DNA of 64,000 bases from Flavobacteriales bacterium (GCA_044376575.1 JBILKR010000006.1:24211-88210); one strand, 5' to 3'; shown: positions 19,859 to 55,606, counted from the stretch's first letter. The notes: generated by a model from the letters alone, not told the origin. Program-made: numbers and translations.

Positions 19859-19913
19859 TCGAACTATTTTTTTTACAATATGACAATGATTGCATATATT
19901 TGATTATCAAGTT

Positions 19914-22472
19914 ATGAAATCAAAATATTCCATCGTTCTGTCTTTCATCTTCTGGATACATGCAATTGTTGTATTGCATGGACAGACAACAGTGTTTATG
20001 GATAATTGTAATGTTTTGGGAGGATGGACAAACACTGGAAGAATTTTTCCTGCGAATTTACCCGGATATGACTGGTTTTCAGTGGATCCCATTGTTCCGA
20101 CAGATGATCATACAGGAGGAGGAAATTGCTTTTATGTAAACGGGAACAACAATTATCTGCAAGCCGGTGGTGGCAGTTACATTATTTATCAACTTGTATC
20201 TCCATCAATAAACTTAACCGGATTTAATAATACACGATTAGAGTTCTGGATGCAGATGCGCAGCGAAACAGGCAACTGGGATGGTGGATATGTTGAATGG
20301 TCGCACAATGGAGTAACCTGGACAAAAATTACTGCAGCTCAAATGTGTATTCCATTTGACGGGCCAATGTCTCAAAATGCTTCTTCTACTCCTTATTATC
20401 CCTTAAATACACCGGCATGGTTTAATCCGAAATTAGTATGGACTCGTGTTTTGGTTGATATTTCTGCCATTGACAATGTTCCTTCGTTTAGGCTGAGATT
20501 TACTTTTCATTCAGATGAAGCATTGGCTGACCGAGGATGGACAATTGATGATATCCATATTGTAAGTGTTGCAATACCACAAGTGCAAGGTAATGCTATC
20601 ATTATTCCTGACAATGATATTACGCCGATTATAGCAGACGGAACTGATTTTGGACAGGTTCCTATCGGACAATCCACCACGCAAACATTTTTTATTCACA
20701 ATATCGGAGAAGCACCGCTCACGCTCACAGGCACACCATACGTTACTGCAACCGGAACAGGATTTACAATTCTTAGCCAACCGGCCACCAATGTGATTCC
20801 TGCCGGAGGATCCGTACCATTTACTGTAGAATTTTCACCTCCGTCTGCCGGAACATTCAACGGAACAATTAATATTCCAAACAGCGATAATTTTTCTGCC
20901 TGTACACCACCTAATCCATACAATTTTGCGGTTAGAGGAAAGAACTTAAATACAGCACCTTATCTTACCAATCAAATTCCGGACACAAATATCTGTGCCA
21001 ATGCAAATAATGTTCAGATAAATTTTTCTTTCAATGACCTGGAACAGGCTCCAGGGAGTATAACATTTACTGCTAATTCCAGCAATCCTGCTGTAGTTGC
21101 CAATGCCAACATTAATATTTCTACTGTAGGGAATAACGGCACTATTACAATTACACCAACGCCCCCCGCCATTGGCTCTGCTACTATTTCAATTACATTG
21201 AATGACGGACAAACCATCAACAATGACTCAACATTTACATTCAATATTAACTTTGGTGATACACTACCGCCCGTCGCCTTGTGCCAAAATCTGCAGGTAC
21301 AACTGGATGCGCAGGGGTTTGGAAGTATTACTCCTCAGCAGGCGAACAATGGAAGTTCAGATGATTGCCAGATTGCACAAATGACCCTAAGCCAAACACA
21401 ATTTACCTGTGCTGATGTTGGAAATATACCTGTTGATTTTACAGTTACTGACTTAACAGGAAACAGCAGTGTTTGCCAGTTAATGGTTACGGTACTGCCT
21501 CCTCCTATATTAATACAACAGACCATCAGTTCTTACAATGGTTTTGAAGTATCATGTAATCAGGGTAACGATGGCTTTATTCAATTACAGGTGAGCGGAG
21601 GTTGTGCTCCTTATCAATATGCATGGAGTAATAATCCCGCAAATAATTCACCTAATGCAAACAATCTGATTGCCGGTAACTACACCGTTGTTATTACAGA
21701 CATTTCAGGACAATCACAAAGTGTAAACATTACACTAACCTCTCCCACTGCTCTTACAGATGCTTCCATGATGGTTCCAATTTCTTGTGGAGGTGCTATA
21801 GACGGAGAAATTCATTTAAGTGCAGCAGGAGGAATAGCTCCATATATCTTTAGTACAGGACCGGATTTACAAAATCTTCCTCCCGGAAATTATAATTATT
21901 CTATTACCGATGCAAACAACTGCGTGGTCGATGGCAGTTATTTACTGATTAATCCCAATACCATATCAATTACTGGAGATACATATTATTCCATGTATTG
22001 CGGGAAAGCAGTTTCGCTCGACATAACAGCCAATGGTGGTTCCGGAATATTGAATTATCAATGGAACAACATAGATTTTCTGGATTGCTCAACCTGCGAA
22101 GATCCTGTAGCTACGCCTCCGGGGTCAATGCAATTTGTAGTGACTGTTAATGATGAGAACGGATGCAATAATCAATATGCAGTGATTGTTGAAGTGGAAT
22201 GTAATTTATTTATTCCCAATTCTTTTACGCCTAATACAGATGGTAAAAACGAAAAATTTCATATATATACCGGAGGTATTAAAGCCCTTGAATTTCGAAT
22301 CTTTAACCGTTGGGGAGAAGAATTATTTTTTACTGATGACGAAACACAGGGATGGGATGGAACCTACAAAGGCAATTTAGTTCCTGAAGGAACGTATGTG
22401 TACAGCGTATGGTTGATAATGCCTGATGGAACAGAAAGAGATCTTAAAGGGATGTTGCAGTTGATCAGATAG
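19914..22472 (+). CDS. Large secreted adhesin-like protein with SprB/HYR-like repeats and a type-B T9SS C-terminal domain (gliding-motility-associated CTD).
   Basis: Signal peptide MKSKYSIVLSFIFWIHAIVVLHG. Repeats of the form ...ISGQSQSVNITLTSPTAL.../...CGGAIDGEIHLSAAGG.... The C-terminus FIPNSFTPNTDGKNEKF...RWGEELF...GWDGTYKG...EGTYVY is a CHU_C/type-B CTD signature. Confidence 0.65.
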   Translation: MKSKYSIVLSFIFWIHAIVVLHGQTTVFMDNCNVLGGWTNTGRIFPANLPGYDWFSVDPIVPTDDHTGGGNCFYVNGNNNYLQAGGGSYIIYQLVSPSINLTGFNNTRLEFWMQMRSETGNWDGGYVEWSHNGVTWTKITAAQMCIPFDGPMSQNASSTPYYPLNTPAWFNPKLVWTRVLVDISAIDNVPSFRLRFTFHSDEALADRGWTIDDIHIVSVAIPQVQGNAIIIPDNDITPIIADGTDFGQVPIGQSTTQTFFIHNIGEAPLTLTGTPYVTATGTGFTILSQPATNVIPAGGSVPFTVEFSPPSAGTFNGTINIPNSDNFSACTPPNPYNFAVRGKNLNTAPYLTNQIPDTNICANANNVQINFSFNDLEQAPGSITFTANSSNPAVVANANINISTVGNNGTITITPTPPAIGSATISITLNDGQTINNDSTFTFNINFGDTLPPVALCQNLQVQLDAQGFGSITPQQANNGSSDDCQIAQMTLSQTQFTCADVGNIPVDFTVTDLTGNSSVCQLMVTVLPPPILIQQTISSYNGFEVSCNQGNDGFIQLQVSGGCAPYQYAWSNNPANNSPNANNLIAGNYTVVITDISGQSQSVNITLTSPTALTDASMMVPISCGGAIDGEIHLSAAGGIAPYIFSTGPDLQNLPPGNYNYSITDANNCVVDGSYLLINPNTISITGDTYYSMYCGKAVSLDITANGGSGILNYQWNNIDFLDCSTCEDPVATPPGSMQFVVTVNDENGCNNQYAVIVEVECNLFIPNSFTPNTDGKNEKFHIYTGGIKALEFRIFNRWGEELFFTDDETQGWDGTYKGNLVPEGTYVYSVWLIMPDGTERDLKGMLQLIR

Positions 22473-24169: not shown

Positions 24170-25027
24170 TTGTTTATAATATCATCATCTATGAATGCTT
24201 CCTTTACTTTTAAGTCTGCTGACGGTATAAATATACAGGGCTATACAGGTGAGCCAGCATCAACGCCGGTTGCGGTAATTGCATTATTGCACGGCATGGG
24301 AGAACATGCCATGCGTTACGCGCATGTTGCAGATTACTTCAATCATCAATCCATTGCTTTTACAGCCATGGACCACAGAGGGCATGGCAAATCAGAAGGG
24401 CAGCGGGGACATTCGCCAAGTTTAGATGCCTTACTCAACGACATTGAATTGTTTATTACAAAAACAAAAGAATTGTATCCGGGTATTCCTGTCATTTTAT
24501 ATGGACACAGCATGGGTGGCAATGTAGCTTTAAACTTTATTTTGAGGAAAAAACCACAACTTGCCGGAGCTATTATTACAGGTCCATATCTCCGATTAGC
24601 ATTTAGTCCACCGGCTTGGAAAACAACATTAGGAAAAATCAGCGCACGTATTATTCCAACACTTACGCAACCTACCGGTCTCGAAACAGCAGCTATCTCA
24701 AGAGATACAGATGTTGTAAAGAAATATGAAAGCGATACGCTGGTGCATGATAAAATTACATCTTCGTTTTTCGTAAGTGTTCATTTCGCCGGTCCATTTG
24801 CAATTGAACATGCTGCTGATATAACATTGCCAATGTTGATTATGCACGGTGGTGCAGACCGACTTACTTCCTGCGAAGCAACCAAAGAATTTGCAGCACG
24901 TGCTGATAAAAATGTTGAATTAAAAATTTGGGAGGGGTTATACCACGAAATTCATAACGAACCGGAAAAAGATGAAGTGCTCAACTATGAATTAGGGTGG
25001 ATTAAACGAACAATTCTTTCACATTAA
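24170..25027 (+). CDS. Alpha/beta hydrolase (lysophospholipase/monoacylglycerol-lipase-like).
   Basis: LHGMGEH and GHSMGG motifs, plus a catalytic His near the C-terminus (YHEIHNE). Confidence 0.75.
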   Translation: MFIISSSMNASFTFKSADGINIQGYTGEPASTPVAVIALLHGMGEHAMRYAHVADYFNHQSIAFTAMDHRGHGKSEGQRGHSPSLDALLNDIELFITKTKELYPGIPVILYGHSMGGNVALNFILRKKPQLAGAIITGPYLRLAFSPPAWKTTLGKISARIIPTLTQPTGLETAAISRDTDVVKKYESDTLVHDKITSSFFVSVHFAGPFAIEHAADITLPMLIMHGGADRLTSCEATKEFAARADKNVELKIWEGLYHEIHNEPEKDEVLNYELGWIKRTILSH

Positions 25028-25818
25028 ACTTCTTTGTAAACCCGCTTTGCGATGAGAATACTCAATTCATACAACCCCATCAAGGGGATTGCTACCAGTA
25101 TTTGACTGGCCACATCCGGAGGCGTAATAATGGCTGCCAAAAACAAAATGATAATAATGGCATGTTTTCGATACTGCATTAAGAAAGCAGGAGATACAAT
25201 CCCGGTCTTTGCTAAAAAGTAAATGACTACAGGGAGCTCAAATAAAATACCGCAACCTAATACAACGGTGAGAATGGTTGATATATACGAAGTAAATGCA
25301 GGAGTGTTGCTCACCTGCTCCATTACATCATAATTCCCTAAGAAATTAACGGTTAAAGGTGCCAAAAGATAATATCCAAAACCTATTCCCATCATAAATA
25401 AAATGGATATATAAAAAACGATACCTGTAATTTTCTTTTTTTCATCCGGATGCAATGCCGGTTTAATGAAGCTCCACATTTCCCATGCAATATATGGGAA
25501 TGCTACAACAAAGCCGGCAATAAATGATCCCCACAGATGCCATGTAAATTGTGCCCCCATATCCAGGCTGACAAAATTTGTAAAAGGTAATGCTCCAAAA
25601 CACAGCGCATCGATCCCCAGAAATTTACCTAATGAACAAAACCATTTATAGGTGATAAAATCCTCTTGAGCTGGTGCGAAGATTATATTATCAAAAAGAA
25701 TAGAAGGAAATATGAAGGCAATAATAGCCACAACAAGCACAGCAATAATAGAACGCATGATGTGCCATCTCAATTCTTCAAGATGCTCAAGAAACGACAT
25801 TTCTTTATCTTCACTCAT
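25024..25818 (-). CDS. tatC: Twin-arginine translocase subunit TatC.
   Basis: MSFLEHLEELRWHIMRSIIAVL followed by a 6-TM profile. Length 264 aa. Confidence 0.88.
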   Translation of the reverse strand: MSEDKEMSFLEHLEELRWHIMRSIIAVLVVAIIAFIFPSILFDNIIFAPAQEDFITYKWFCSLGKFLGIDALCFGALPFTNFVSLDMGAQFTWHLWGSFIAGFVVAFPYIAWEMWSFIKPALHPDEKKKITGIVFYISILFMMGIGFGYYLLAPLTVNFLGNYDVMEQVSNTPAFTSYISTILTVVLGCGILFELPVVIYFLAKTGIVSPAFLMQYRKHAIIIILFLAAIITPPDVASQILVAIPLMGLYELSILIAKRVYKEV

Positions 25819-25819
25819 C

Positions 25820-26536
25820 TTATTCGATTAGAATTTGTCCGCCAAGCGAATAGTTCTTTGAAAAATTTCCGGCTGGTAATTGACGATAATAAATCTTTCC
25901 GCCTGATACCGCTTTTGCATCAAATTGCTGAGAAGGGCTTATCCATACTTTTGCTCCAAGGATTGATTTCACTGTAGCATCAGTACATACCAACTTTTCC
26001 ATTTTTACTTTAGAACCGGAAGAGGCATCGATATTAACCACTTCTGATTTCCCGGATACATATACATCAGATCCCTGACCGGCATACACAGTTATTTTTT
26101 TAGTATTTACAAGCAGATTTGTAAACCCATCAAGATTGGCGTCAATGATTAATTCATTTGAATTCAATTCAATATCACATTTAGCCAAACCACCAAACGT
26201 GGGTGTTATTTTTACAATCGGCTGAGTGTAATAAAGAATCGCTTTTATATCTGCATCATTTAAAATTCCTTCTGTTTTAATCACGAATTCATCATTTATA
26301 ACCGATGTAACGATCTTTTCGTTCATGATGTTTTTAGGAAAAATTTCAATCTTATTTTCCTGAGCGGGAATAAGTGTTACAGTGATATTATCAGATACTT
26401 TTACTTTGGTAAATAGAGTAAGATTTCTTGTTTCCTGAACCTGAGCGCACAAAGAAGAAAACATAAAAATCTGAACCAGTACTATAATAATCCTTGCTAT
26501 CATTTGAATGCGTAAAATTAATGAAAATATTAACAA
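25820..26536 (-). CDS. Secreted DUF2807/GIN-domain-like protein (putative adhesin-head-like beta-helix).
   Basis: Signal peptide, then repetitive segments of the form V.V.GSG.V...(SGKSEVVNIDASSGSKVKM, KAVSGGKIYY). The start is possibly at MIARIII (26503). Confidence 0.45.
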   Translation of the reverse strand: MLIFSLILRIQMIARIIIVLVQIFMFSSLCAQVQETRNLTLFTKVKVSDNITVTLIPAQENKIEIFPKNIMNEKIVTSVINDEFVIKTEGILNDADIKAILYYTQPIVKITPTFGGLAKCDIELNSNELIIDANLDGFTNLLVNTKKITVYAGQGSDVYVSGKSEVVNIDASSGSKVKMEKLVCTDATVKSILGAKVWISPSQQFDAKAVSGGKIYYRQLPAGNFSKNYSLGGQILIE

Positions 26537-26564
26537 CGCATCAGATGATGAAACACGCTAATTG

Positions 26565-26669
26565 TTATTGAATAATCATTCCAATAACAGCAATAACTGT
26601 CATGGCCACAACAATAGATAAAATAATATAAGCAAACATTTTTCCTATGCCAGCAAAACAACCACCCAT
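26565..26669 (-). CDS. Possible 34-aa hydrophobic single-TM microprotein. It is not in the ORF track because it is under 60 aa.
   Basis: My own translation is MGGCFAGIGKMFAYIILSIVVAMTVIAVIGMIIQ. It starts 1 nt after the stop of the upstream 51-aa ORF. Confidence 0.3.
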   Translation of the reverse strand: MGGCFAGIGKMFAYIILSIVVAMTVIAVIGMIIQ

Positions 26670-26670
26670 A

Positions 26671-26826
26671 TTATTTATTTATCTTTTTTAAAATCTTGCC
26701 AGCAATTTTCCCTGTGATACGATTTCTAACTCGCTTCACAATATTTCCTTTAGCCACGGCATCCACATCACCTAAAATTTTAGCAGTAGAGTACAAGCTC
26801 CTTCTAATTTTACTTAATAGTCCCAT
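26671..26826 (-). CDS. Possible 51-aa polycationic microprotein. It is not in the ORF track.
   Basis: My own translation is MGLLSKIRRSLYSTAKILGDVDAVAKGNIVKRVRNRITGKIAGKILKKINK. Its ATG overlaps the TAA of the upstream lipoprotein gene (TAATG). Confidence 0.3.
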   Translation of the reverse strand: MGLLSKIRRSLYSTAKILGDVDAVAKGNIVKRVRNRITGKIAGKILKKINK

Positions 26827-27992
26827 TATTTGTCAATTCTATCAAACGGATCATATTTACCCAAATGAAATATCTTACGTATCCATGGTAATTCATCGTA
26901 CTGATATTTCTGAAGTAATTTTTTATTTCCTTCAATTTCAGCCTTGGTTTCCATTTCATCTTTGTGTTTCAGGTAATCAAAATTCATTACTACAGAATCT
27001 TGTTTGAACTGATCCAGTTTATTAATTCGATCCACCTGATCTTGATACTTTTTCATTTCAAATTCCCAGTCACGTTTTGCTTTTGGATTTAATTTTTTCA
27101 AGTATGCCTGATAGATTTTTTCAGCTTCTGAATAACAAGAAGATTGTTGATCAATTAACATATAATATGACATGGCTGCTTCATTAAATCCGGAAGCAGA
27201 AGGGTCATTCGCCTTTCCTAACTCTGCTTTCATAGACGCCAAAATACTTTGGCAATTTGTATTTAGAGATAGCTGAAAATACTCTGCTTTCTTATTCATT
27301 GCCTGGTCAAAGCAGGATTTTGCTTCTATTGGAATGTTATTTAAGATAGTGTAAGCTGCATCATATTTCCTCATTTTTGCTTCTGAATCAGCCTGTTGTA
27401 AAAAGCTATTACAGTTTGATTCATAGAATTGAGCAATTTTATCTTGAGTCTTTTTTAAGAAATCATAGAATTCTTCGTTGTCAAAATTAAAATCCCGGAA
27501 TCCTTGAATAAACGCTTTATCCGGACTATCTCCCACGCCTTTAACTGTAAAAGTATACGAAGCAAAAATGGTTTCTGTAACAACATCCGCAGATAATAAT
27601 GTTACTTCGTAAGTATTCGCATACTTTGTGGGTGCTGTTCCTGTTAAATTTTTGGAAAGCAAATTAATGTCTGGGCCAATAATAAAGCGTGGATTTGCTC
27701 CATCTCCGCCAAAACCAACTTTTGCTACTGCAGCATTGATTCTTGTGGAAAGTATTTGTCTTCCGGATGCTCCCAAATCCGGATAATCAGGAACAAATGG
27801 GGTAAGCTTTATAGACAATTGTAAATCTGTTATTGCGCTACCAGACGAAGACTTACTACCGGACGCATCTGTACTTTCTTGCTTGGTAAACGCACCTTCT
27901 TCATTTTTTCCTTGAGTTAAGGGATCTTCTTTTTTAGTACAGGAGAATAAAACAAAGATCGTTCCGATGATTAGCAGGTTAATTTTTTTCAT
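26826..27992 (-). CDS. Lipoprotein of unknown function (start placed at MKKINLL, lipobox ...LFSC).
   Basis: The ORF extends to 28082, but a signal peptide plus lipobox Cys begins at internal Met 31. The rest is a Cys-containing helical region with no recognised domain. Confidence 0.5.
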   Translation of the reverse strand: MKKINLLIIGTIFVLFSCTKKEDPLTQGKNEEGAFTKQESTDASGSKSSSGSAITDLQLSIKLTPFVPDYPDLGASGRQILSTRINAAVAKVGFGGDGANPRFIIGPDINLLSKNLTGTAPTKYANTYEVTLLSADVVTETIFASYTFTVKGVGDSPDKAFIQGFRDFNFDNEEFYDFLKKTQDKIAQFYESNCNSFLQQADSEAKMRKYDAAYTILNNIPIEAKSCFDQAMNKKAEYFQLSLNTNCQSILASMKAELGKANDPSASGFNEAAMSYYMLIDQQSSCYSEAEKIYQAYLKKLNPKAKRDWEFEMKKYQDQVDRINKLDQFKQDSVVMNFDYLKHKDEMETKAEIEGNKKLLQKYQYDELPWIRKIFHLGKYDPFDRIDK

Positions 27993-28009
27993 TTTAATAA
28001 ATTCAATTT

Positions 28010-28519
28010 TTACTTCACTATTTTTTCGTAATCGGCTATTTTTTTTAACAACAATTTTTGCTGGGTTTCTTCCTTTTTCCAATCACGAGTATCACTTTCA
28101 TTCCAGCCTTCTACATTCCTTAAATCAGATGCCTTTAATGCCCATTTCTTGGCTGATTTATAATCTTCTTTTTCTAAGAAATTATTAACTGCCATCTCTA
28201 TAACTACATACTTTGCTTTTTCTTTTTCATGGTCGTAATAGTTTGTATGGCTTGCTTCATTAATCACATTCAATGCCGCATCAAATTCTCCATTTTTTGC
28301 AAGATATATGCTTTCTGCTTCTGTTATCTTTTGCAGATGTGAGTATGCTCCCAATGATTCATCTGCTGCCATATAAGCTCTTGCCGCCACAAAATCATAC
28401 TTTGAAATACAATCGTCTACGTTTTCACAATCGTACTTGGCTTCAGGCTTTGGAGTTTCTTTTTTTCCACAAGAGAAAAGAAAACCAATACTTAACAGAA
28501 TTAAAATAATTTTTTTCAT
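28010..28519 (-). CDS. Small lipoprotein of unknown function (helical).
   Basis: MKKIILILLSIGFLFSCGKKE is a lipoprotein signal. Length 169 aa. Confidence 0.5.
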   Translation of the reverse strand: MKKIILILLSIGFLFSCGKKETPKPEAKYDCENVDDCISKYDFVAARAYMAADESLGAYSHLQKITEAESIYLAKNGEFDAALNVINEASHTNYYDHEKEKAKYVVIEMAVNNFLEKEDYKSAKKWALKASDLRNVEGWNESDTRDWKKEETQQKLLLKKIADYEKIVK

Positions 28520-28533
28520 AAGAGGTATATTAA

Positions 28534-29547
28534 TTACTTAGTACCTTCAATCACAACCATAGCATCGCCAAGGCTTTGTGTTTTATTTTTTACATTTAGA
28601 CTACATCCTTTCTTCATGGCTTTAGATAGATTCTTAGCAAAATCATAAGCCGTGTACTTTTTACCATCTTCTGTTTTTGCAAATATTCTTACGTTAGTAA
28701 AATACATTTCGGTAGAAGTATTTTTTACCATTTTAAAAGACTGATTTACTGTATTATCTTTCAACCACTCATTAATTTTTTCTCCTATTTCTGTATCACC
28801 ACAATCATCATCTATCTTAACATCACCCTCTTTTTTAGTTGCAACGCGTAAAGTAATTTCAATTCCGTTGGCTAATAAACCGGCAAAATGAGATGTGATT
28901 TGTGTTTTCATATCCCCTATGCTTGACGGGAAGTCTTGTTTAATCAAAGAAGGGATGTCGTTTTCTTTAGATTCTTTGCCAACATTTGCCTTTGAAACTG
29001 AGGCTACAGCTTTATTCGTATATACATCCAAGCATTTTGCAGAATAGGTTACTGACTTATTTAAGTTTCTGCTGGACGGATCAGATTTTAATTCATAATC
29101 TAATTCTACTACATAGTCAGGACGTGCTGTATTTAATAATTCAGCACGCATATCACGTGCAATATCATCCATTTCATCCATTGCATTATTATTAGCAATC
29201 TGTTTTAATTGCTGTTCTAAATCTTCCATTGGGAATCCAGCCTTGGCAAATTCTTCCTGAATAGCAGCTACAGCAAATTTCAAGTCAGGATTTTTAATGA
29301 AAGCTTGCTGATAATTTCTTTCATATGCAACTGTTCCCTGATTTTCCACTTCCTTTAAAAAGCCCATTCGAAGCAACATCGCATCCGATGGCAATACCAT
29401 TATAGTAGGCATAGACTGGCTAAGGGCATTGGCTTCAACCTTAGCTGCCTCTACTTGACCATCTGTGGGCATTAATCCATCAGACTTTTTTTCTCCTCCA
29501 CAAGAAAACAGAATAAAAACGACTAAAATGAATGGAATTTTTTTCAT
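28534..29547 (-). CDS. Lipoprotein of unknown function.
   Basis: MKKIPFILVVFILFSCGGEKK is a lipoprotein signal with the start placed at MKKIPF. No recognised domain. Confidence 0.5.
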   Translation of the reverse strand: MKKIPFILVVFILFSCGGEKKSDGLMPTDGQVEAAKVEANALSQSMPTIMVLPSDAMLLRMGFLKEVENQGTVAYERNYQQAFIKNPDLKFAVAAIQEEFAKAGFPMEDLEQQLKQIANNNAMDEMDDIARDMRAELLNTARPDYVVELDYELKSDPSSRNLNKSVTYSAKCLDVYTNKAVASVSKANVGKESKENDIPSLIKQDFPSSIGDMKTQITSHFAGLLANGIEITLRVATKKEGDVKIDDDCGDTEIGEKINEWLKDNTVNQSFKMVKNTSTEMYFTNVRIFAKTEDGKKYTAYDFAKNLSKAMKKGCSLNVKNKTQSLGDAMVVIEGTK

Positions 29548-29607
29548 AACAATAGTTAACATGTTTATAGATTGATAATATTAAATCAAAAATAATTTTT
29601 TTTTAAT

Positions 29608-29640
29608 AAAAACAAAAAAAGCCTTGCAATTGCAAGGCTT
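29608..29640 (-). terminator. Rho-independent terminator downstream of coxI (minus strand).
   Basis: Perfect palindrome GCCTTGCAATTGCAAGGC, followed on the minus strand by TTTTTTTGTTTTT. Confidence 0.75.
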
Positions 29641-29663
29641 CGTTGTTATATATTCAAAGAAAA

Positions 29664-31478
29664 TTAATGAGCGTGTTCTTTTTCATTTGCAGCCAAAGGT
29701 TCTGTTTGAGGAATAAAGTCAGATTCTTTATCCGGCAAACTATAATCATAAGGCCAACGGTGAACTGCAGGAATTTCTCCAGGCCAGTTTCCGTGTAAAT
29801 GTTCAACAGGGGTTGTCCATTCTAATGTAGTTGACTGCCATGGATTTTGTGGTGCTTTAGGACCTTTCAGAGCACTGTAAATAAAGTTGAAAACAAATAC
29901 AAACTGAACCAATACTCCTACGATAGCAAAAATACTGATGATGGTATTCAAATCTGCAAAGCCATTAAACATTTCGAATGCCGTATAATTGTAATATCTT
30001 CTTGGTACGCCAGCAAGACCTAAGTAATGCATCGGGAAGAATACACCATACGCTGAAGTCAATGTTACCCAAAAGTGAATGTAACCCAGTTTATTATTCA
30101 TCATACGTCCAAACAATTTAGGATACCAGTGATAAACACCGGCAAATGTTCCGAACATCGATGCTACACCCATTACGATATGGAAGTGAGCCACTACGAA
30201 ATATGTATTGTGAAGGTTAACATCCAAAGCAGAGTCTGCCAAAATAATACCTGTTAAACCACCGGTAATAAATAGAGATACAACACCAATTGCAAACAAC
30301 ATACCCGGAGTAAATCGAATATTCCCTTTCCAAAGCGTAGTGATGTAATTGAACGCTTTAATTGCAGAAGGAATCGCAATTAATAATGTAGTAAATGTAA
30401 ACACAGAACCAAGGAATGGATTCATTCCCGTAATATACATGTGGTGACCCCATACAATGAATGACAAGAAAGCAATCGCTAACATAGAAGCAATCATTGC
30501 CCTGTACCCGAAAATTGGTTTTCTTGAATTTACTGCAATTACTTCAGAGGTAATACCCAAAGAAGGTACCAGAATAATATACACCTCCGGGTGACCTAAG
30601 AACCAGAATAAGTGCTGGAATAAAATCGGGCTTCCACCTGTTTGCTCTAAGGCTTGTCCGGAAATAAATATATCTGAAAGGTAAAAACTTGTTCCAAAGC
30701 TTCTGTCGAAGATCAATAATAATGCTGCTGCAAGAAGAACTGGGAATGAAAGTAAACCTAATATTGCTGTAATAAGGAAAGCCCATACTGTTAAAGGCAG
30801 TTTAGTCATCGACATGCCTTTAGTACGCAAATTAACTACTGTAGTAATATAATTTAATCCACCCGTTAATACAGAAACAATAAACATTGCAATACTTAAC
30901 AACCATAATGTCATTCCAAGACCAGATCCCTGAGAAGCCTGAGGCAATGCACTTAATGGAGGATATACAACCCATCCGCTGGCTGCAGGACCTGTTTCAA
31001 CAAACAAAGAAATAAGCATCAATGCACTTGATAAGAAAAAGAACCAGTAGGATAACATGTTCAAGAATGGAGACGCCATGTCGCGCGCACCAATTTGAAG
31101 TGGAATCAAAAGGTTACTGAATGTTCCGCTCAGCCCTGCAGTTAATACCATGAATACAAGGATTGTTCCGTGTATGGTTACTGCTGCCAAATAAAAATTT
31201 GGATCAAGGATACCATCTTTTGCCCATTTGCCTAAAAATGTTTCAAGGATAGGCATCGGTTGACCCGGCCATCCTAGCTGAATACGAAAGACCAAACTCA
31301 ATAATCCTCCAACCAATCCCATAAAAATTCCAGTAATCAGGAACTGCTTGGCAATCATTTTATGATCCATACTAAAGATGTACTTCGATATGAAGGACTC
31401 TTTATGATGATGTCCGTGATCATGATCGTGTGCGGTATGGCTGTGAACTTCCGTGTGTGTTGAATGAATTTCGCTCAT
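29664..31478 (-). CDS. ctaD: Cytochrome c oxidase subunit I (heme-copper oxidase, caa3/aa3-type).
   Basis: 12-TM protein carrying WFFGHPEVY and HHMY/GMNPF motifs. It has a His-rich N-terminal extension (HTEVHSHTAHDHDHGHHHKE). Confidence 0.88.
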   Translation of the reverse strand: MSEIHSTHTEVHSHTAHDHDHGHHHKESFISKYIFSMDHKMIAKQFLITGIFMGLVGGLLSLVFRIQLGWPGQPMPILETFLGKWAKDGILDPNFYLAAVTIHGTILVFMVLTAGLSGTFSNLLIPLQIGARDMASPFLNMLSYWFFFLSSALMLISLFVETGPAASGWVVYPPLSALPQASQGSGLGMTLWLLSIAMFIVSVLTGGLNYITTVVNLRTKGMSMTKLPLTVWAFLITAILGLLSFPVLLAAALLLIFDRSFGTSFYLSDIFISGQALEQTGGSPILFQHLFWFLGHPEVYIILVPSLGITSEVIAVNSRKPIFGYRAMIASMLAIAFLSFIVWGHHMYITGMNPFLGSVFTFTTLLIAIPSAIKAFNYITTLWKGNIRFTPGMLFAIGVVSLFITGGLTGIILADSALDVNLHNTYFVVAHFHIVMGVASMFGTFAGVYHWYPKLFGRMMNNKLGYIHFWVTLTSAYGVFFPMHYLGLAGVPRRYYNYTAFEMFNGFADLNTIISIFAIVGVLVQFVFVFNFIYSALKGPKAPQNPWQSTTLEWTTPVEHLHGNWPGEIPAVHRWPYDYSLPDKESDFIPQTEPLAANEKEHAH

Positions 31479-31498
31479 ACAGTTATATTTTATGAATA

Positions 31499-32740
31499 TT
31501 AAATATTTTTAGTTGATGTTGTATCTTTTACTGCTGTAGTATCTTTTACCTCTATTGCTGCTTCAGCAGATGGAGTTTCAGATGCTAACTGACTTTTGAT
31601 TGTTTTCTTATTCTTTAACCACTTGGTATAATCTTCTTCTGTTACAACAACTATTGGTAATTGCATATTATAGTGTGCAGAACCACAGATGTTGTTACAG
31701 TATAACAAATAATTAAAGTTTGGGTTTTTGAGTTTCGTTCTCATTTCAGCTGTAGTGATTGTCGGTGTAAATGTAAAACCTGTTTTTACACCAGGTACAC
31801 AATACATATGAACACGGAAGTGTGGCAAGTATGCACTGTGAATTACATCCTGACTACGCAAGTGAAGCTCCATCGTTTTATTTACAGGCATATAAATAGT
31901 ATCCTGAAAAACTATATCATCATACGCTGTTTGATATGGAGATTGAGCTGATTTATTTTTGAATTCAATCACTTGCTGAAGTTGTTTTTTTAATCTTTTG
32001 TATGCTTTATTCAAGTCATTCATTTCTTCTTCATTTGGAAAATCAGCCAACTCTTTTTCAAGTCTTGCTTTTTCTTCATTCAGTGCTTTCAATTGCTGTT
32101 CGATATGTTCAGCAGTAATCAGACCCAATGAATTTGTAGCAGAAATCATGGTAAAGTTAGCATCTCCCAGTTGTTTGTCTTCACCGGCAAAACGAACTGT
32201 CCAATCGAACTGACGAGCATATAATTCAAAAATAATTTTATCAGGATCTTCACTTTTTTTAGTAGATTGATTCCACACGATTAATCCTTTCAAAACCAAC
32301 ACAGCCATTACAATCGCAGGAATTATAGTCCATACCATTTCCAATGTATTGTTATGCGCATAGTGATATGCTTTACGATTCTTATTGTATCTGTATCGAT
32401 AAGCAAACCACATCAACAATGTTTGTGTAATAAAAAAGGCAAGAGAAATGATAATGAAATTTAACTCTAACAAATCATCAACTTCTTTTCCATGAAGAGA
32501 AGCTGCAGGAGGCAACATATAGTTGTAGTTATAATACTTGTTAAAGAAGTAAAAGAACATGCCAAATAATCCAACAAGCGATGCTAAAACCAACAGTGCA
32601 TTGGTATTGTTTTCCTTTTCAGAAATTTCATAAGGTTGCTTTCCTCTCAATATTGAAGCAAATTCAAAAACCTTAAGTAATCTGACTGCCGTATAGATTG
32701 TCAGAATGATAACAGCGAGGAGAAGAATATTCATCAACAT
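31499..32740 (-). CDS. coxB: Cytochrome c oxidase subunit II (CuA centre).
   Basis: Two N-terminal TM helices and the CuA motif HS...CNNICGSAHYNMQ. Confidence 0.85.
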   Translation of the reverse strand: MLMNILLLAVIILTIYTAVRLLKVFEFASILRGKQPYEISEKENNTNALLVLASLVGLFGMFFYFFNKYYNYNYMLPPAASLHGKEVDDLLELNFIIISLAFFITQTLLMWFAYRYRYNKNRKAYHYAHNNTLEMVWTIIPAIVMAVLVLKGLIVWNQSTKKSEDPDKIIFELYARQFDWTVRFAGEDKQLGDANFTMISATNSLGLITAEHIEQQLKALNEEKARLEKELADFPNEEEMNDLNKAYKRLKKQLQQVIEFKNKSAQSPYQTAYDDIVFQDTIYMPVNKTMELHLRSQDVIHSAYLPHFRVHMYCVPGVKTGFTFTPTITTAEMRTKLKNPNFNYLLYCNNICGSAHYNMQLPIVVVTEEDYTKWLKNKKTIKSQLASETPSAEAAIEVKDTTAVKDTTSTKNI

Positions 32741-32765
32741 AATGCCTTCGATTAGTTAGTTATTA

Positions 32766-33941
32766 TTAAATATGATGTTGTTTACTTTCATTTAAGAAGG
32801 GGTGATTCGCAGGAACCAGCGGCGCTTTACTTAATGCTGTAAACACCACATATAAGAAAAGACCAAGGAATCCCAAAACCATTCCAATTTCAGTGAAACC
32901 TATATTCCATTTATCTTTCACAGTTCCCGGCATAATAATCTGAAATAAATCCAGATAGTGTCCTACCAGTAATATTGCTCCCACTACAGATAGCAACCAA
33001 GGTGTTCTCTTCGCATCACGATGCATAAGAATAAGTAATGGAAACGCAAAATTGATCACAAGCATAGGAATAACGATGTATTTATAGTCTGTATCAAAAC
33101 GCTCAAGGAAATAGTTAATTTCTTCAGGAATATTTGAATACCAAATCAACATGTATTGAGAGAACCATAAATATGTCCAAAATACACTGAATGCAAACAT
33201 AAATTTTGCCAGATCATGAATATGGTTTTCATTCACCCAGTGCATTAATCCTTGTCTTTTTAAATGCAAAAGAATTAATAACATCATGATGATTCCACTC
33301 ACAAACAAACCAGCAAAAATATACCATCCAAAAAGTGTAGAAAACCAGTGAACATCGATAGACATTAACCAATCCCATGCAGACATAGAAGAAGTAACCC
33401 CAAAAAACACAAGGAAAATTGCACCAAACATTAATCCTTTATTATGATTTTTAAATCCGGGATTTGCATCTTCATTCAATGAAATTTTTCTGAACTGCAT
33501 TGCAAGGAAAATCCATCCCAGTAAATAAACTACTGTGCGGATTGCATAAAATGTATTGCTCAAATAAACCTTCTTTCCGCTATTCATGTAGATTTCATCC
33601 GTTGTCTGGAAATGATGATCCATCCAGTGCCATATATCATGAACACCTAAAATACCGGCAACAACTAATCCGAGCATCACAATTCCTCCAATAGGTAAAT
33701 ATGTACTCATTGCTTCTGGAATTCTTTTGAAACCTGAATGCCATCCAGCTTCTGCCACATAGCTTACAGCAATGAAAAAGGTTCCTGCCAATGCAATGGC
33801 CAGGAAGAAAAATCCATTCAGTAATAAGTTAGCCCAGATTCTTTCGGGTGTCATCACAAAACCGTAGGCAATCGCCGCAACACCTATTCCCATCAGGGCC
33901 AGTGTTAACATTTTTGTTTTTCCTGTGAATGTGTAATTCAT
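32766..33941 (-). CDS. actF: Alternative complex III subunit ActF (NrfD-like polytopic membrane protein).
   Basis: 391-aa polytopic membrane protein, placed last in the ACIII gene order and immediately upstream of coxII. Confidence 0.65.
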   Translation of the reverse strand: MNYTFTGKTKMLTLALMGIGVAAIAYGFVMTPERIWANLLLNGFFFLAIALAGTFFIAVSYVAEAGWHSGFKRIPEAMSTYLPIGGIVMLGLVVAGILGVHDIWHWMDHHFQTTDEIYMNSGKKVYLSNTFYAIRTVVYLLGWIFLAMQFRKISLNEDANPGFKNHNKGLMFGAIFLVFFGVTSSMSAWDWLMSIDVHWFSTLFGWYIFAGLFVSGIIMMLLILLHLKRQGLMHWVNENHIHDLAKFMFAFSVFWTYLWFSQYMLIWYSNIPEEINYFLERFDTDYKYIVIPMLVINFAFPLLILMHRDAKRTPWLLSVVGAILLVGHYLDLFQIIMPGTVKDKWNIGFTEIGMVLGFLGLFLYVVFTALSKAPLVPANHPFLNESKQHHI

Positions 33942-33971
33942 CTTATTCTTCTTTTCTGGTTGATATCCGAA

Positions 33972-34613
33972 TTATTTTATTTTAGTTGAATCTGCTGCAG
34001 CAGTTGCTGGTGCTCCTGATTGTTGTAAGGTTTGTACAAACTGAACAATTTGCCAGCGCTCATACGCTGAAAGTTGTGATGCGTAAGGCCCCATATTTCC
34101 TTTTCCAAATTGCATGGCATGGAATATTTGTCCTTCAGAAATATTTTTTAATTGATCTGAGTTATATGCCGGCGGCTGTAACCCATAGTTTTCTTTAGCC
34201 AATAAAACTTTAACGACTGACCCATCTCCTTTACCTTCTGCACCATGACATGCGATACAGTAAACATTATATAGTCTTTTCCCATTTTCCAAATGTGCTT
34301 CAGATTTTGCCAGCGGACTCTTTAAAAGTGCAATCGCTGAGTCTCTTCCCGCAGCGGTATTGGTGTATGGATAAGGAAAAGAATTCACCATTTTTTCGCG
34401 GTCAAATGAATGTGCAATAGTTCCTGTAACCGGATCCTGATTGGTTTTGCCATCTGCAAAAACCACACTGGCTTCTCCTGCCTTTGATGCAGGCGAATAA
34501 TACATGTCTGGCATGTATTGATATCCGGGACTGTTTTTATCTTTTACGCAAGAGGTCAGCATCACAGCAACTGCTGCAAAACCGAGTATTGTATGCTTAT
34601 TGATGTTTTTCAT
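33972..34613 (-). CDS. actE: Alternative complex III subunit ActE (monoheme c-type cytochrome lipoprotein).
   Basis: Lipoprotein signal (...MLTSC) and a single CIACHG heme motif. Confidence 0.75.
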   Translation of the reverse strand: MKNINKHTILGFAAVAVMLTSCVKDKNSPGYQYMPDMYYSPASKAGEASVVFADGKTNQDPVTGTIAHSFDREKMVNSFPYPYTNTAAGRDSAIALLKSPLAKSEAHLENGKRLYNVYCIACHGAEGKGDGSVVKVLLAKENYGLQPPAYNSDQLKNISEGQIFHAMQFGKGNMGPYASQLSAYERWQIVQFVQTLQQSGAPATAAADSTKIK

Positions 34614-34636
34614 TTTTAGAACAATATCAATTTTTA

Positions 34637-35182
34637 TTAATCTTTATATTTCAATTCAGATGAATTCACTTCATCAGCAGCCGTTTGACTGATGAAAGTT
34701 TTAATCTCAGTTTCAGATATTTTCTGATTATCATCCAATACGATTTCCATTACAAACTTATCATCTGTTGAACGCGGATCTGGATTCATCGCCTTTAATC
34801 CGGGAAACAATCTGGATCTGAATAAGTATGTAAAATTCATCAGGTGAGCTGCAATCAATACCGTAATTTCAAATGTAACCGGAATAAATGCGGGCAGATT
34901 CTGACTTAAAGAGAAACTTGGTTTACCTCCAATATTCATTGGCCAGTCCTGAATATTCATGTACCATATCATGAGTAACGCTAAAGAAGTACCCAATAAT
35001 CCATAGAAGAATGCCACCGTTGATATTCTTGTTGGTTTTACACCCAAGGCTTTATCAATCCCGTGAATTGGAAATGGAGAATATACTTCTCTGATTGTAA
35101 CTCCTTTTTCCATCAGATGCTTGGCTCCGGCTAACGTTTCGTCCGGATCATTGTAAACTGCCAATACTGTCTTTTTATTCAT
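34637..35182 (-). CDS. actD: Alternative complex III subunit ActD (small membrane subunit).
   Basis: 181 aa with two TM segments, located between actC and actE. Confidence 0.6.
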   Translation of the reverse strand: MNKKTVLAVYNDPDETLAGAKHLMEKGVTIREVYSPFPIHGIDKALGVKPTRISTVAFFYGLLGTSLALLMIWYMNIQDWPMNIGGKPSFSLSQNLPAFIPVTFEITVLIAAHLMNFTYLFRSRLFPGLKAMNPDPRSTDDKFVMEIVLDDNQKISETEIKTFISQTAADEVNSSELKYKD

Positions 35183-35213
35183 ATCAAAATGATGTTAGTC
35201 TGTTCTTTATTGA

Positions 35214-36623
35214 TTAATGATGGTGATCATCACCTGCTTTTTCATATAAATCTTCTGTCTTTTTCTTCCATCCATCGCCTGAAACCTTTAAAATAGATTT
35301 GGTTTCTGCAATTGCAATTACAGGGAATGATCTGGAGAATAATAAAAACAACGTAAAGAAAATTCCAAGTGTTCCTATAAAAATTCCGATATCTACATAC
35401 GTTGGATAGAACATCGTCCAAGAAGAAGGAAGATAATCGCGGTGCAATGATGTAACAATAATTACAAAACGCTCAAACCACATCCCTACGTTTACGACCA
35501 ATGATAACAAGAAAGTACCAACCAGGCTTCTGCGTATTCCTCTGAACCAGAAAAGCTGTGGACTGATTACGTTGCAGCTCATCATGATCCAGTATGCCCA
35601 TGCATAAGGACCGGTTGCTCTGTTCAGGAACGCATAGTGTTCGTATTGTACTCCTGAATACCAGGCAATCACTAACTCTGTAATATAAGCAACACCAACG
35701 ATAGACCCCGTAACCACGATAATTTTGTTCATGGATTCAAGGTGATTAATCGTAATATATTCTTCCAGATTCAATACTTTACGCATAATGATCAACAAGG
35801 TCGCAACCATTGCAAAACCTGAGAAGATTGCACCCGCAACGAAGTATGGAGGGAAAATTGTGGTGTGCCAGCCAGGAATTACTGAAGTTGCGAAGTCCAT
35901 AGATACGATAGTGTGAACTGAAAGTACCAGCGGAGTTGATAAACCGGCAAGTACCAACGATACCTCTTCAAAGCGCTGCCAGCTTTTTACATTTCCTGAC
36001 CATCCAAAACTTACCACATTGTATATTTTTTTCATGAATGGGATGATCTGACGATCACGAACAGTTGCAAAATCAGGAATCAAACCAATATACCAGAATC
36101 CTAAGGAAACAGAGAAATACGTTGAAATTGCAAATAAGTCCCAAAGAAGTGGAGAGTTGAAGTTTACCCACAAAGATCCGAATTGGTTAGGAACTGGGAA
36201 GAACCAATAAACAACCCACACACGACCTACGTGAATTCCGGGAAACGTTGCAGCACAAATTACCGCAAAGATGGTCATGGCTTCAGCAGAACGGTTAATC
36301 GCCATTCTCCATTTTTGACGGAACAATAATAAGATTGCTGAAATCAGTGTACCTGCGTGACCAATACCTACCCACCATACGAAGTTGGTAATATCCCACG
36401 CCCATCCTACCGTTTTATTAAGCCCCCAGGCTCCAACTCCTGTACCAAATGTATAGGCGATTAATCCTAATCCCCATAATGCACACATGGCAGAAATGGT
36501 AAACACGAGGTACCACAGCTTATTCGCTCGACCTTCAATCGGTTTGCAAATATCTTCCGTTATCTGATGATAGGATTTATTTCCTAAAATTAACGGTTCC
36601 CTTACTGGTGATTCTATATGCAT
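35214..36623 (-). CDS. actC: Alternative complex III subunit ActC (NrfD/PsrC-like quinol-binding membrane subunit).
   Basis: 469-aa polytopic membrane protein following actB. It has a His-rich C-terminus (DDHHH). Confidence 0.8.
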   Translation of the reverse strand: MHIESPVREPLILGNKSYHQITEDICKPIEGRANKLWYLVFTISAMCALWGLGLIAYTFGTGVGAWGLNKTVGWAWDITNFVWWVGIGHAGTLISAILLLFRQKWRMAINRSAEAMTIFAVICAATFPGIHVGRVWVVYWFFPVPNQFGSLWVNFNSPLLWDLFAISTYFSVSLGFWYIGLIPDFATVRDRQIIPFMKKIYNVVSFGWSGNVKSWQRFEEVSLVLAGLSTPLVLSVHTIVSMDFATSVIPGWHTTIFPPYFVAGAIFSGFAMVATLLIIMRKVLNLEEYITINHLESMNKIIVVTGSIVGVAYITELVIAWYSGVQYEHYAFLNRATGPYAWAYWIMMSCNVISPQLFWFRGIRRSLVGTFLLSLVVNVGMWFERFVIIVTSLHRDYLPSSWTMFYPTYVDIGIFIGTLGIFFTLFLLFSRSFPVIAIAETKSILKVSGDGWKKKTEDLYEKAGDDHHH

Positions 36624-36656
36624 ATCTTTCGACTTCTAATTCTTTAATAATTTATC

Positions 36657-39600: not shown

Positions 39601-39833
39601 GGAATTGCTTTTTTAATAGGCGTTTCACAAGCAGCCAGCGTTGCAGCTGTTACACTGAATCCTAAAAATTTAAGGAAATCCCTTCGATTGGAATTAGAAA
39701 CAGATGTTTTTTCATCTGCCAAAAACTCCGTCATCGGAAGATCTTCTGCAAATTCATTCTCTCTGTTCTTAATGAACTGAGGATCGTTTTCCAGTTCTTC
39801 GTATCCTTTCCAGTATATTTTATTCTTACTCAT
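36657..39833 (-). CDS. actB: Alternative complex III subunit ActB (molybdopterin-oxidoreductase-like plus 4Fe-4S ferredoxin-domain subunit, Tat-exported).
   Basis: Tat signal RRDFLKFLGFSVTAATLAAC and multiple CxxCxxCxxxCP clusters in the C-terminal third. It has a His-rich C-terminal tail. Length 1058 aa. Confidence 0.85.
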   Translation of the reverse strand: MSKNKIYWKGYEELENDPQFIKNRENEFAEDLPMTEFLADEKTSVSNSNRRDFLKFLGFSVTAATLAACETPIKKAIPYVIKPETITPGVPNYYASSYYDGSDYFSVLVKTREGRPIKVDGNKLSGVTAGSSNARLQASVLSLYDSKRAKSALKAGAPVAWSQADEEISSKLKELAAAGKKTYLVTNTIISPSTQAVINDFIATYNNVIHVQYDAVSYQAVRLANQASFGKSVIPSYQFHKANAIASFGADFLNGWLMSGVYAKQYAETRRPENANMSRHYQFESIMSLAGSNADYRVMLKPSQIGTALVALYNHIAKLANAPSAGSVTVPFAEDIAKCGDYLWSKKGSALVVCGINDVNAQTITNEINKLLGSYGNTIDINQSVNLFNGNDSAMAEMFNNISGNAVILYGVNPAYTLPNGTDFNKALASAAISVSFGDRMEETTVQYLMPDHHYLESWNDFNPVAGQYSLQQPTIHPLFDTRAAQESLLVWAGKASRSDKNSSTYREYIKNTWRNTLFASSGKLLFDEFWNTSLHDGVYSIAVTPTAETGSTANISASAQAINAAASNAKGWEITLYEKVGMGTGMMAANPILQELPDPISRVTWDNYITMSPADMDKQEFGFNKLMGQNQWANVAKVTVNGKTLELPVLAQPGQTPGTIGIAIGYGRKFGKNDEVIGANAFPLLQIAGNNFSTIVTGASVESAGKKHQLAGTQTHHTMMGRDIVKETSLKEFGKDPKSGNPDKVMHTNVQSLTNGGHEAPIDKIDYWKDFKMVNHRWGLSIDLNSCNGCGACVVACHVENNVPVVGKDEIRRSRDMHWMRIDRYYTSDADPSTRYEKGNDNYRKKEIPSNSPKVVFQPVMCQHCNHAPCETVCPVLATTHSSEGLNQMTYNRCVGTRYCANNCPYKVRRFNWFQYSENKKFDYYMNDELGKLVLNPDVTVRARGVMEKCSMCVQRIQAGKLEAKKQDRLVKDQEIKTACAEACPTNAIIFGDYNDEAAMIAKLENDPRAYHLLEEVGVKPNVIYQTKVRNVEEEYGHHAHAETHASEGHSNESAHH

Positions 39834-39873
39834 AGGTTATTGAATCCGATTAGGAACTAATTAATATAATCTA

Positions 39874-55560: not shown

Positions 55561-55606
55561 ACTTCTTCAGCCAAAATTAATGATATCAAACTTGAATATA
55601 TTTAAA

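Follow-up and report, generated by a model that had tools for sequence, protein, structure and literature searches.

In the Pel exopolysaccharide system, the outer-membrane lipoprotein PelC, which has a small alpha/beta domain, forms a ring and works with a helical-repeat (tetratricopeptide repeat, TPR) partner, PelB. CsgG, the curli secretion lipoprotein, shares this class of periplasmic alpha/beta fold and is encoded in a small operon with accessory proteins. In the penicillin-binding protein (PBP) activators, LpoB carries a long disordered linker between its lipid anchor and a compact alpha/beta domain, and LpoA has helical-repeat domains. FlgT belongs to the H-ring of the Vibrio flagellum, and three-lipoprotein operons of the GNA1162 (DUF799)/DUF4810/CsgG-like kind, in which LpoB/CsgG-like alpha/beta lipoproteins are cotranscribed with a helical one, exist in Proteobacteria and are functionally uncharacterised. 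Here we compare these systems with a block of genes from a Flavobacteriales bacterium (GCA_044376575.1 JBILKR010000006.1:24211-88210), a stretch of 64,000 nucleotides (nt) referred to below as the window and numbered from its first letter. The block encodes three predicted lipoproteins, named here lipoA, lipoB and lipoC, and lies downstream of the coxI terminator as part of a run of seven minus-strand genes:

28534-29562, minus strand: lipoA, 342 amino acids (aa), or 337 aa from the alternative ATG at 29547
28010-28519, minus strand: lipoB, 169 aa
26826-27992, minus strand: lipoC, 388 aa
26671-26826, minus strand: p51, 51 aa, polycationic
26565-26669, minus strand: p34, 34 aa, hydrophobic
25820-26503, minus strand: secreted DUF2807 (GIN-domain) protein, PF10988
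25024-25818, minus strand: tatC, PF00902

An alignment of DUF6175, the family to which lipoA belongs, was searched against one genome per species and recovered 20 loci among 185,579 species, all of them in metagenome-assembled genomes (MAGs) of uncultured Bacteroidota from lakes and oceans. Open reading frames (ORFs) were called in these 20 species loci and in eight further contig contexts and were then searched with profiles. In every locus with enough DNA (~25 independent loci), lipoA, lipoC and one to three lipoB homologues stood side by side and codirectional (A-B-C or A-C-B), mostly with gaps of 5 to 44 nt. Because the trio recurs adjacent and codirectional in so many independent loci, the arrangement is far beyond chance. 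Apart from two clusters made up of antisense shadow ORFs within the module genes, all-versus-all clustering of the locus ORFs revealed no further family with members in four or more loci, and the flanks of the module differ everywhere (resistance-nodulation-division [RND] efflux, non-ribosomal peptide synthetases, type IX secretion system [T9SS] cargo, tRNA synthetases, ion channels, nucleases and KAP NTPases). DUF2807 and tatC were found in 0 of the ~25 related module loci. A test for a conserved neighbourhood, that is, the same genes adjacent and codirectional in distant genomes among varied flanks, picked out lipoA, lipoB and lipoC and left out DUF2807 and tatC. Since the trio is present in all of the related loci and DUF2807 and tatC in none, we consider it very likely that the lipoA-lipoB-lipoC block is the functional unit of the module; judged from gene order, DUF2807 and tatC would be mere neighbours outside it, with tatC a housekeeping gene. 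The earlier note on this DNA had taken the whole block for one uncharacterised envelope module, a description that holds for lipoA-lipoB-lipoC-p51 and fails for DUF2807 and tatC. Its question of whether the orthologues are scattered or syntenic was answered by strong synteny of lipoA, lipoB, lipoC and the 51-aa gene.

The lipoA protein is 52-73% identical across most of the carrier MAGs, whose taxonomic labels are Flavobacteriales, Cytophagaceae, Saprospira, Bacteroidales and Rikenellaceae, and the module has probably spread horizontally. A comparison with an empty site gave no direct evidence of an insertion: a metagenome scan with DUF2807 was empty, and 80 further Bacteroidota coxI loci, none above 75% identity, had neither tatC, the module nor DUF2807 next to or downstream of coxI. 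In one related locus (L026, 10001-10519) only the first ~170 lipoA codons remain and are followed by unrelated DNA, and in another (L017, 11009-12204) lipoC is broken into a pair of ORFs. Both are explained by decay or by errors of assembly, and they fit the turnover expected of accessory genes.

Each of the three lipoproteins begins with MKK, followed by a hydrophobic stretch and an LFSC lipobox, and the lipobox cysteine is invariant in the homologue alignments of lipoA (C21) and lipoC (C18). By their lipoboxes, all three are predicted substrates of signal peptidase II. No twin-arginine motif (S/T-R-R-x-F-L-K) was present in lipoA, lipoB, lipoC or DUF2807, the signals of which are of the Sec type (MKK or MIAR). 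The lipoproteins are mildly acidic, with net charges of -5 to -7. Sequence homology among them was rejected, as hhalign comparisons of the three detected signal-peptide similarity only. Searches of the PDB sequences with the family profiles returned only weak pentatricopeptide repeat (PPR)/TPR-like matches. A PADLOC-DB 2.0 scan of six proteins gave no significant match (the best, Cas8a at E = 0.0065 and 14 bits, was noise), and a PHROGs scan of the module proteins gave no matches. A phage origin of the lipoproteins was rejected, none being found in IMG/VR and no convincing fold match in BFVD.

The earlier note stated that the three lipoproteins match no nameable domain; this is incorrect for lipoA, which is a full-length member of PF19672, DUF6175 (E = 5.8e-65; score 219.7 bits, gathering threshold 23; model positions 2-292 of 293). 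All 223 detectable lipoA homologues are DUF6175 proteins. Mean column identity is 67% over 30 homologues, among which Cys21, Cys254 and Cys320 are invariant. The structural model of lipoA (predicted local distance difference test [pLDDT] 80, predicted template modelling score 0.73) has a disordered segment at residues 18-48 (pLDDT <50), followed by two alpha/beta domains. The name 'nucleoside diphosphate kinase' is attached to some DUF6175 entries (P0214, P0215, P0222, P0226 and P0227) in JGI and NCBI annotations. We rejected this label and regard it as probably a propagated misannotation, because no such family appeared in the Pfam/NCBIfam scans of lipoA.

Across the whole lipoC family, comprising 176 detectable homologues, no protein has a Pfam domain, and the family shows a weak PPR/TPR-like sequence match. 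The lipoC model (pLDDT 74) begins with a disordered tether of ~40 residues (17-55, pLDDT <50) and continues with an alpha/beta domain (~60-170), a helical-repeat region with four invariant cysteines and a single helix (303-374). This C-terminal helix of ~70 residues ends in the conserved motif EIEGNKKLL.KY.YDELPW, and G355, N356, L359, K362, D366, P369, W370 and F375 of the tip are invariant. A 51-aa ORF that follows lipoB in locus L114 (8790-8945) resembles this tip (...AESAGNKKLLKKY) and not p51; two further lipoB paralogues follow it, which suggests a local duplication.

The window lipoB has no Pfam match and is helical, with a C..DDC pair and a YDF..AR motif; a C..D.C / YDF..AR core is common to the lipoB homologues across loci. 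Many of these homologues are of a different, non-lipoprotein form, with one or two cytoplasmic TerB/DUF533-like motifs (ADGKIS.KEK..L.KRA..EG.D.DEFE), then basic residues and a transmembrane helix, and finally the YDF domain:

8196-9002 in L005: inner-membrane lipoB homologue
11041-11898 in L009: inner-membrane lipoB homologue
12266-13042 in L011: inner-membrane lipoB homologue
4839-5642 and 5775-6560 in L015: two inner-membrane lipoB homologues
12214-13488 in L019: inner-membrane lipoB homologue
6794-8065 in L021: inner-membrane lipoB homologue

By sequence, lipoB exists in two anchoring modes, as a lipoprotein or as a predicted N-in inner-membrane protein, and would be the variable adaptor of the module. 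The N-in topology of the transmembrane helix in the latter form would place the YDF domain, and hence the whole assembly, in the periplasm.

When the models were compared with the PDB by Foldseek, lipoA and lipoC both returned one lipoprotein superfamily, with probabilities of up to 1.0, modest E-values (1e-3 to 2e-4) and low template modelling (TM) scores. The best matches of lipoA were FlgT, DUF330, GNA1162, PelC, HpaA, CsgG and LpoB; those of lipoC were CC_3750, DUF330, CsgG, Cj1090c, PelC and FlgT (E to 2e-4, probability to 1.0), and LptE was also among the matches in the superfamily. The models point to an LpoB/PelC/CsgG/FlgT/LptE-like fold class for lipoA and lipoC, of which, because of the modest E-values and low TM-scores, only the class is secure. 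The proteins matched are periplasmic lipoproteins associated with the outer membrane, and several of them build rings. There was no Pfam or NCBIfam match of the lipoproteins to PelC, CsgG or LpoB and no PDB sequence match to these proteins. The three lipoproteins had been described as unrelated; at the level of sequence no homology between lipoA and lipoC is detectable, but the two share a fold class.

PelC matches both lipoA and lipoC with probabilities to 1.0 and target TM-scores of 0.4-0.58 but has no sequence similarity to them; neither pelA-G nor a porin partner is present, and the ring is known for PelC, whereas the models here are of monomers. In addition, lipoA has two domains, and lipoC adds the helical-repeat and long-helix regions. 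For CsgG, no transmembrane hairpins are evident in our models, and there are no curli subunits and no CsgE/F. The LpoB C-terminal domain is matched by lipoA (ranks 28 and 38) and likewise follows a long disordered linker, but there is no sequence relationship to the Lpo proteins, and the present module is a three-protein, accessory one with no linked PBP gene. GNA1162 ranks third among the lipoA matches (probability 0.99). Its operons differ in belonging to another phylum, with no Pfam match here to DUF799, DUF4810 or CsgG, and a small basic peptide is found only in our module; nothing relevant on DUF799/DUF4810 appeared in the literature searched. FlgT is the top match of lipoA, over ~290 columns, which suggests a similar multidomain periplasmic ring-building architecture in the model, but the TM-score is 0.24, Bacteroidota have no flagella, no flg genes are present here, and lipoA is predicted to be lipidated.

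Immediately after lipoC, p51 encodes a protein with a net charge of +12, an isoelectric point of 11.5 and no signal peptide. The p51 start codon overlaps the lipoC stop (TAATG), and the gene is predicted to be translationally coupled to lipoC. In at least five other loci (L001, L003, L010, L018 and L022) a homologue comes next after the module, 2-11 nt from the preceding gene, and a 49-aa gene is called at the p51 position in the P0009 locus. A word-indexed homologue search gave two matches and was uninformative; an exhaustive HMMER search, used instead, recovered 135 cluster representatives (E<=1e-3). Members of the family are mostly free-standing proteins of ~50 aa with the consensus ISKIRSALYKTAKLLGDVNAVKKGRVGKRIARRIAGKVTGKLL, and the others are larger proteins with a single or double copy in C-terminal position. 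Two of these (P0247 and P0271), which are metagenomic phage Neck1/tail-completion proteins (phrog_222, E = 1e-33 and 1e-25), carry a C-terminal tandem of the p51 motif. Free-standing homologues occur in the Bacillus phages PM1 (a 50-aa gene, NC_020883.1 13744-13896) and vB_BteM-A9Y, and also in Bacillus subtilis-group chromosomes, where they are annotated 'hypothetical protein'. Judged by these profile matches, p51 is not an orphan: small basic proteins of its family are widespread and associated with phages, and the family appears to be undescribed. The arginine pair of p51 (SKIRRSLY) is not conserved, the homologues having RS, RK or RG.

By analogy, the closest characterised counterpart of p51 would be phiKT gp28 ('disruptin'), a 56-aa cationic phage peptide that disrupts membranes and that, like p51, is a strongly cationic, predicted helical, phage-associated protein of ~50-56 aa with no signal peptide (bioRxiv 10.1101/515445). 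The two differ in that the p51 family also occurs in phages of Gram-positive hosts and that no lysis genes lie beside p51; gp28 scores 2 bits against the p51 profile, and homology of p51 to phiKT gp28 or to LL-37 was rejected, none having been found.

The p34 protein carries an MGGC..GIGK motif followed by one transmembrane helix. A homologue (MGCLGGIGK and a transmembrane helix) is present in L010 at 5349-5450, and p34 is also called as a gene in conspecific contigs. The P0009 locus also has a called gene of 34 aa immediately downstream of lipoC, a candidate p34 homologue whose sequence was not readable. We regard p34 as a sporadic accessory gene. At the p51 position several marine Flavobacteriales loci have a different basic peptide of 56-59 aa, here called type 2 (MFGFGKKLG.SFSLKRL.GI.G.KSSIA.KTG.P.TKGG.ERK), and just downstream of it a K+ channel gene (TVGYGD, TrkA-N) or a Castor/Pollux-type channel gene. 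A relationship of the type-2 peptide to p51 was not significant (~5 bits). In L112 the channel gene directly follows lipoB, no type-2 peptide was found there, and a bestrophin gene is next.

9137-9316 in L005: type-2 peptide
9329-9499 in L012: type-2 peptide
6616-6795 in L015: type-2 peptide
13221-13379 in L017: degenerate type-2 peptide
9348-11177 in L005: channel gene
10098-11129 in L012: channel gene
6826-7854 in L015: channel gene
8982-10826 in L112: channel gene

In four loci a protein of 400-432 aa with a helix-turn-helix (HTH)-like N-terminus and no Pfam match adjoins the module on the opposite strand and may be a regulator; no homologue of its gene is present in the 64-kb window.

8995-10293 in L001, strand opposite to the module: HTH-like neighbour
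4116-5366 in L005, strand opposite to the module: HTH-like neighbour
118-1320 in L010, strand opposite to the module: HTH-like neighbour
594-1874 in L014, strand opposite to the module: HTH-like neighbour

The junctions from lipoA to tatC are, in order, 14 nt, 17 nt, -1 nt, 1 nt, 61 nt and 1 nt. The near-gapless minus-strand run described previously is therefore confirmed for its seven genes, but the 61 nt before DUF2807 are not a tiny gap. The same gene arrangement was found in contigs of the same species, in which the gene callers chose ATG 29547 as the lipoA start. The true start of lipoC is the ATG of MKKINLL and not the TTG of a longer, 418-aa ORF, and that of DUF2807 is the ATG of MIARII and not the TTG at 26536. 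An anomaly in GC content or third-position GC content (GC3) was considered and rejected, as both are only ~1 standard deviation below the window mean in the module, which is not diagnostic. Upstream, the following signals and gene precede the module:

29664-31478, minus strand: coxI, last gene of the alternative complex III (ACIII)-cox operon
29618-29641, minus strand: intrinsic terminator of the ACIII-cox operon, with a 10-bp stem (five GC pairs) and a 4-nt loop, then TTTTTGTTTTT
29587-29616, minus strand: candidate sigma-A promoter, with TTTG at 29616-29613, an 18-nt spacer and the -7 box TATTTTTG at 29594-29587

The coxI terminator is the upstream limit of the transcription unit of the module. 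The -7 box TATTTTTG ends 24 nt 5' of the lipoA ATG; TAnnTTTG is the consensus of the Bacteroidota -7 box. Exact TAnnTTTG has two matches on this strand in 24900-29720, one before lipoA and the other inside lipoC, and was found upstream of lipoA in seven of 22 related loci against 2.1 expected. From lipoA to tatC no terminator-like site was found on this strand, the sole other one lying inside tatC. Because of the promoter-like box before lipoA and the lack of an internal terminator-like site, lipoA through p34 very probably form one transcript. In the same scan, no exact -7 box preceded DUF2807, and the 61-nt gap before that gene contains a one-mismatch -7 box, TAATTTTA. The 1-nt DUF2807-tatC junction, together with the lack of a terminator-like site and of an exact -7 box before DUF2807, makes read-through plausible, and DUF2807 may be cotranscribed with the module in this way. 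The single transcript that had been proposed to start after the coxI terminator is thus very probable from lipoA to p34, and it may extend to DUF2807 and tatC.

The two genes downstream were rightly recognised as a DUF2807-like gene running into tatC, across the 1-nt junction. The DUF2807 protein matches PF10988 at E = 1.5e-22 and has a signal peptide that ends ...SLCA|QVQ, and TatC matches PF00902 at E = 5.7e-63 and TIGR00945 with 167.9 bits (cut-off 132.7). The tatC stop (minus strand, 25024-25027) shares 4 nt with the stop of a convergent alpha/beta-hydrolase gene, and no terminator-like site lies between the two genes. Upstream of the module, the co-directional genes of alternative complex III (Fer4, NrfD, ActD and cytochrome c) are followed by coxII and coxI; by their Pfam labels they are a typical Bacteroidota respiratory operon. 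Elsewhere in the window, the counterpart of an 860-aa ORF in a contig of the same species has SprB and CHU_C domains, which are typical of gliding or T9SS surface proteins.

24170-25027, plus strand: convergent alpha/beta-hydrolase gene
29664-41358, minus strand: ACIII-cox gene cluster
19890-22472, plus strand: 860-aa ORF
55580-63052, plus strand: ORF of 2490 aa

We propose that the module encodes an accessory, outer-membrane-tethered periplasmic scaffold able to span the envelope, a reading that we consider about evenly balanced between right and wrong; for the architecture of the scaffold our confidence falls somewhat below that. The functional unit would be lipoA (DUF6175)-lipoB-lipoC-p51, with p34 as an occasional extra, in a self-contained block that moves among uncultured aquatic Bacteroidota and that in this genome has the cox operon on one side and the unrelated DUF2807 and tatC genes on the other. 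The three lipoproteins would be exported by Sec, processed by signal peptidase II and anchored by lipid, with lipoA and lipoC attached to the periplasmic side of the outer membrane through flexible tethers 30-40 residues long. Their alpha/beta domains may oligomerise into a periplasmic scaffold, possibly ring-like, with lipoB as a helical-repeat adaptor bridging lipoA and lipoC, and the ~70-residue C-terminal helix of lipoC would point its conserved tip to the peptidoglycan or the inner membrane. In sister versions lipoB would be anchored in the inner membrane and expose the TerB/DUF533-like motif to the cytoplasm, which suggests that the assembly can bridge both membranes and communicate with the cytoplasm. 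As a cytoplasmic polycationic partner or output, p51 could bind membranes or nucleic acids, and its translational coupling would keep it in a fixed ratio to lipoC.

Several observations weigh against this proposal. Oligomerisation and the interaction of lipoA, lipoB and lipoC are assumed from co-inheritance. Some homologues have acidic residues after the lipobox cysteine, like Bacteroidota export signals, and surface exposure is possible for the versions in which all members are lipoproteins. As p51 is found in only about one-third of the loci and its family is also present in Gram-positive phages, it may ride along with the module without being part of it. Finally, the taxonomic labels of MAGs are unreliable, so that the case for horizontal transfer is only indicative.

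In a different reading, all seven genes, lipoA to tatC, would work together as a single operon for envelope stress or export, with a LiaG-like DUF2807 protein and TatC cooperating with the lipoproteins. The 1-nt DUF2807-tatC junction and the missing terminator-like site and exact -7 box agree with it, and the 61-nt gap with its near-consensus box, like the lack of a twin-arginine signal in the module proteins, does not. As a functional unit it is already largely refuted by the absence of DUF2807 and tatC from the related loci, and we consider it highly improbable. The LiaG-like stress module of the earlier note fares no better: no LiaF/S/R-type genes are present in the annotated neighbourhood, and DUF2807 is not conserved with the lipoproteins. 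A curli- or Pel-like export apparatus, with lipoA and lipoC as a funnel in the periplasm through which a polymer or a peptide, perhaps p51, is secreted, would explain the fold resemblance to PelC and CsgG, the helical-repeat partner (as with PelB) and the acidic lipoproteins beside a +12 peptide. Yet p51 lacks a signal peptide, and the module has no conserved partners among beta-barrel, polymer-synthesis, ATP-binding cassette (ABC) or type I secretion genes. In addition, neither the lipoA nor the lipoC model shows an evident transmembrane hairpin of the CsgG type, and the Pfam CsgG and PelC models do not match. Taken together, this leaves such an apparatus very unlikely. Equally doubtful are LpoA/LpoB-like regulators that reach from the outer membrane through the sacculus to peptidoglycan synthases or hydrolases. 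Long disordered tethers before small alpha/beta domains, the matches to LpoB C-terminal domains and helical-repeat domains as in LpoA favour them, but the module is rare and accessory (20 species), where an essential regulator of wall synthesis would be expected throughout a lineage; PBP and hydrolase genes are not among its conserved neighbours, and no sequence match to LpoB was found.

An anti-phage or abortive-infection role is also unlikely, if less so: the lipoprotein assembly would sense envelope attack, and variable membrane-active outputs (p51 and p34 here; elsewhere the other basic peptide with a K+ or Castor/Pollux channel, or a KAP NTPase) would collapse the membrane or block infection. 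The patchy, rare distribution with high sequence conservation and shifting contexts is consistent with this role, as are the conserved core with variable downstream genes, the phage association of the p51 family and the decayed copies in L026 and L017. Several loci have defence-type neighbours (a PvuRts1I/SRA-type restriction-enzyme domain protein, PD-(D/E)XK nucleases, a KAP NTPase, DpdF/Cas3-like helicases, mad3/mad8, PDC-S20 and WYL), which is support from individual cases. On the other side, no PADLOC model matches any module protein, many neighbours are housekeeping or T9SS cargo genes, the module is absent from 2.9 million viral contigs, and in the window it lies between core respiratory and Tat genes. 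A bolder version, to which we give little credence, would make the DUF6175 trio the sensor and scaffold of an unrecognised trans-envelope Bacteroidota system that couples outer-membrane or periplasmic events, for instance phage attack or envelope damage, to interchangeable membrane-active outputs, p51 being a phage-derived one, and thus a new lipoprotein-based class of defence or abortive infection.

The periplasmic scaffold that we favour would be built of parts that belong to known structural kinds. As a candidate system the module is clean and sharply bounded. Because all its carriers are uncultured and the role is predicted from sequence and models, it is of limited practical weight. DUF6175 was not mentioned in the literature searched; if our reading is correct, this domain of unknown function would become the marker of a defined multiprotein envelope assembly, with two partner families, lipoB and lipoC, that are without any profile. 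The assembly would be linked to a widespread, unstudied family of phage-associated basic peptides of ~50 aa, and a Bacteroidota example would join the lipoprotein machines of the LpoB/PelC/CsgG fold. The lipoB variants with a TerB-like cytoplasmic motif would then provide a handle on how such assemblies signal across the envelope.

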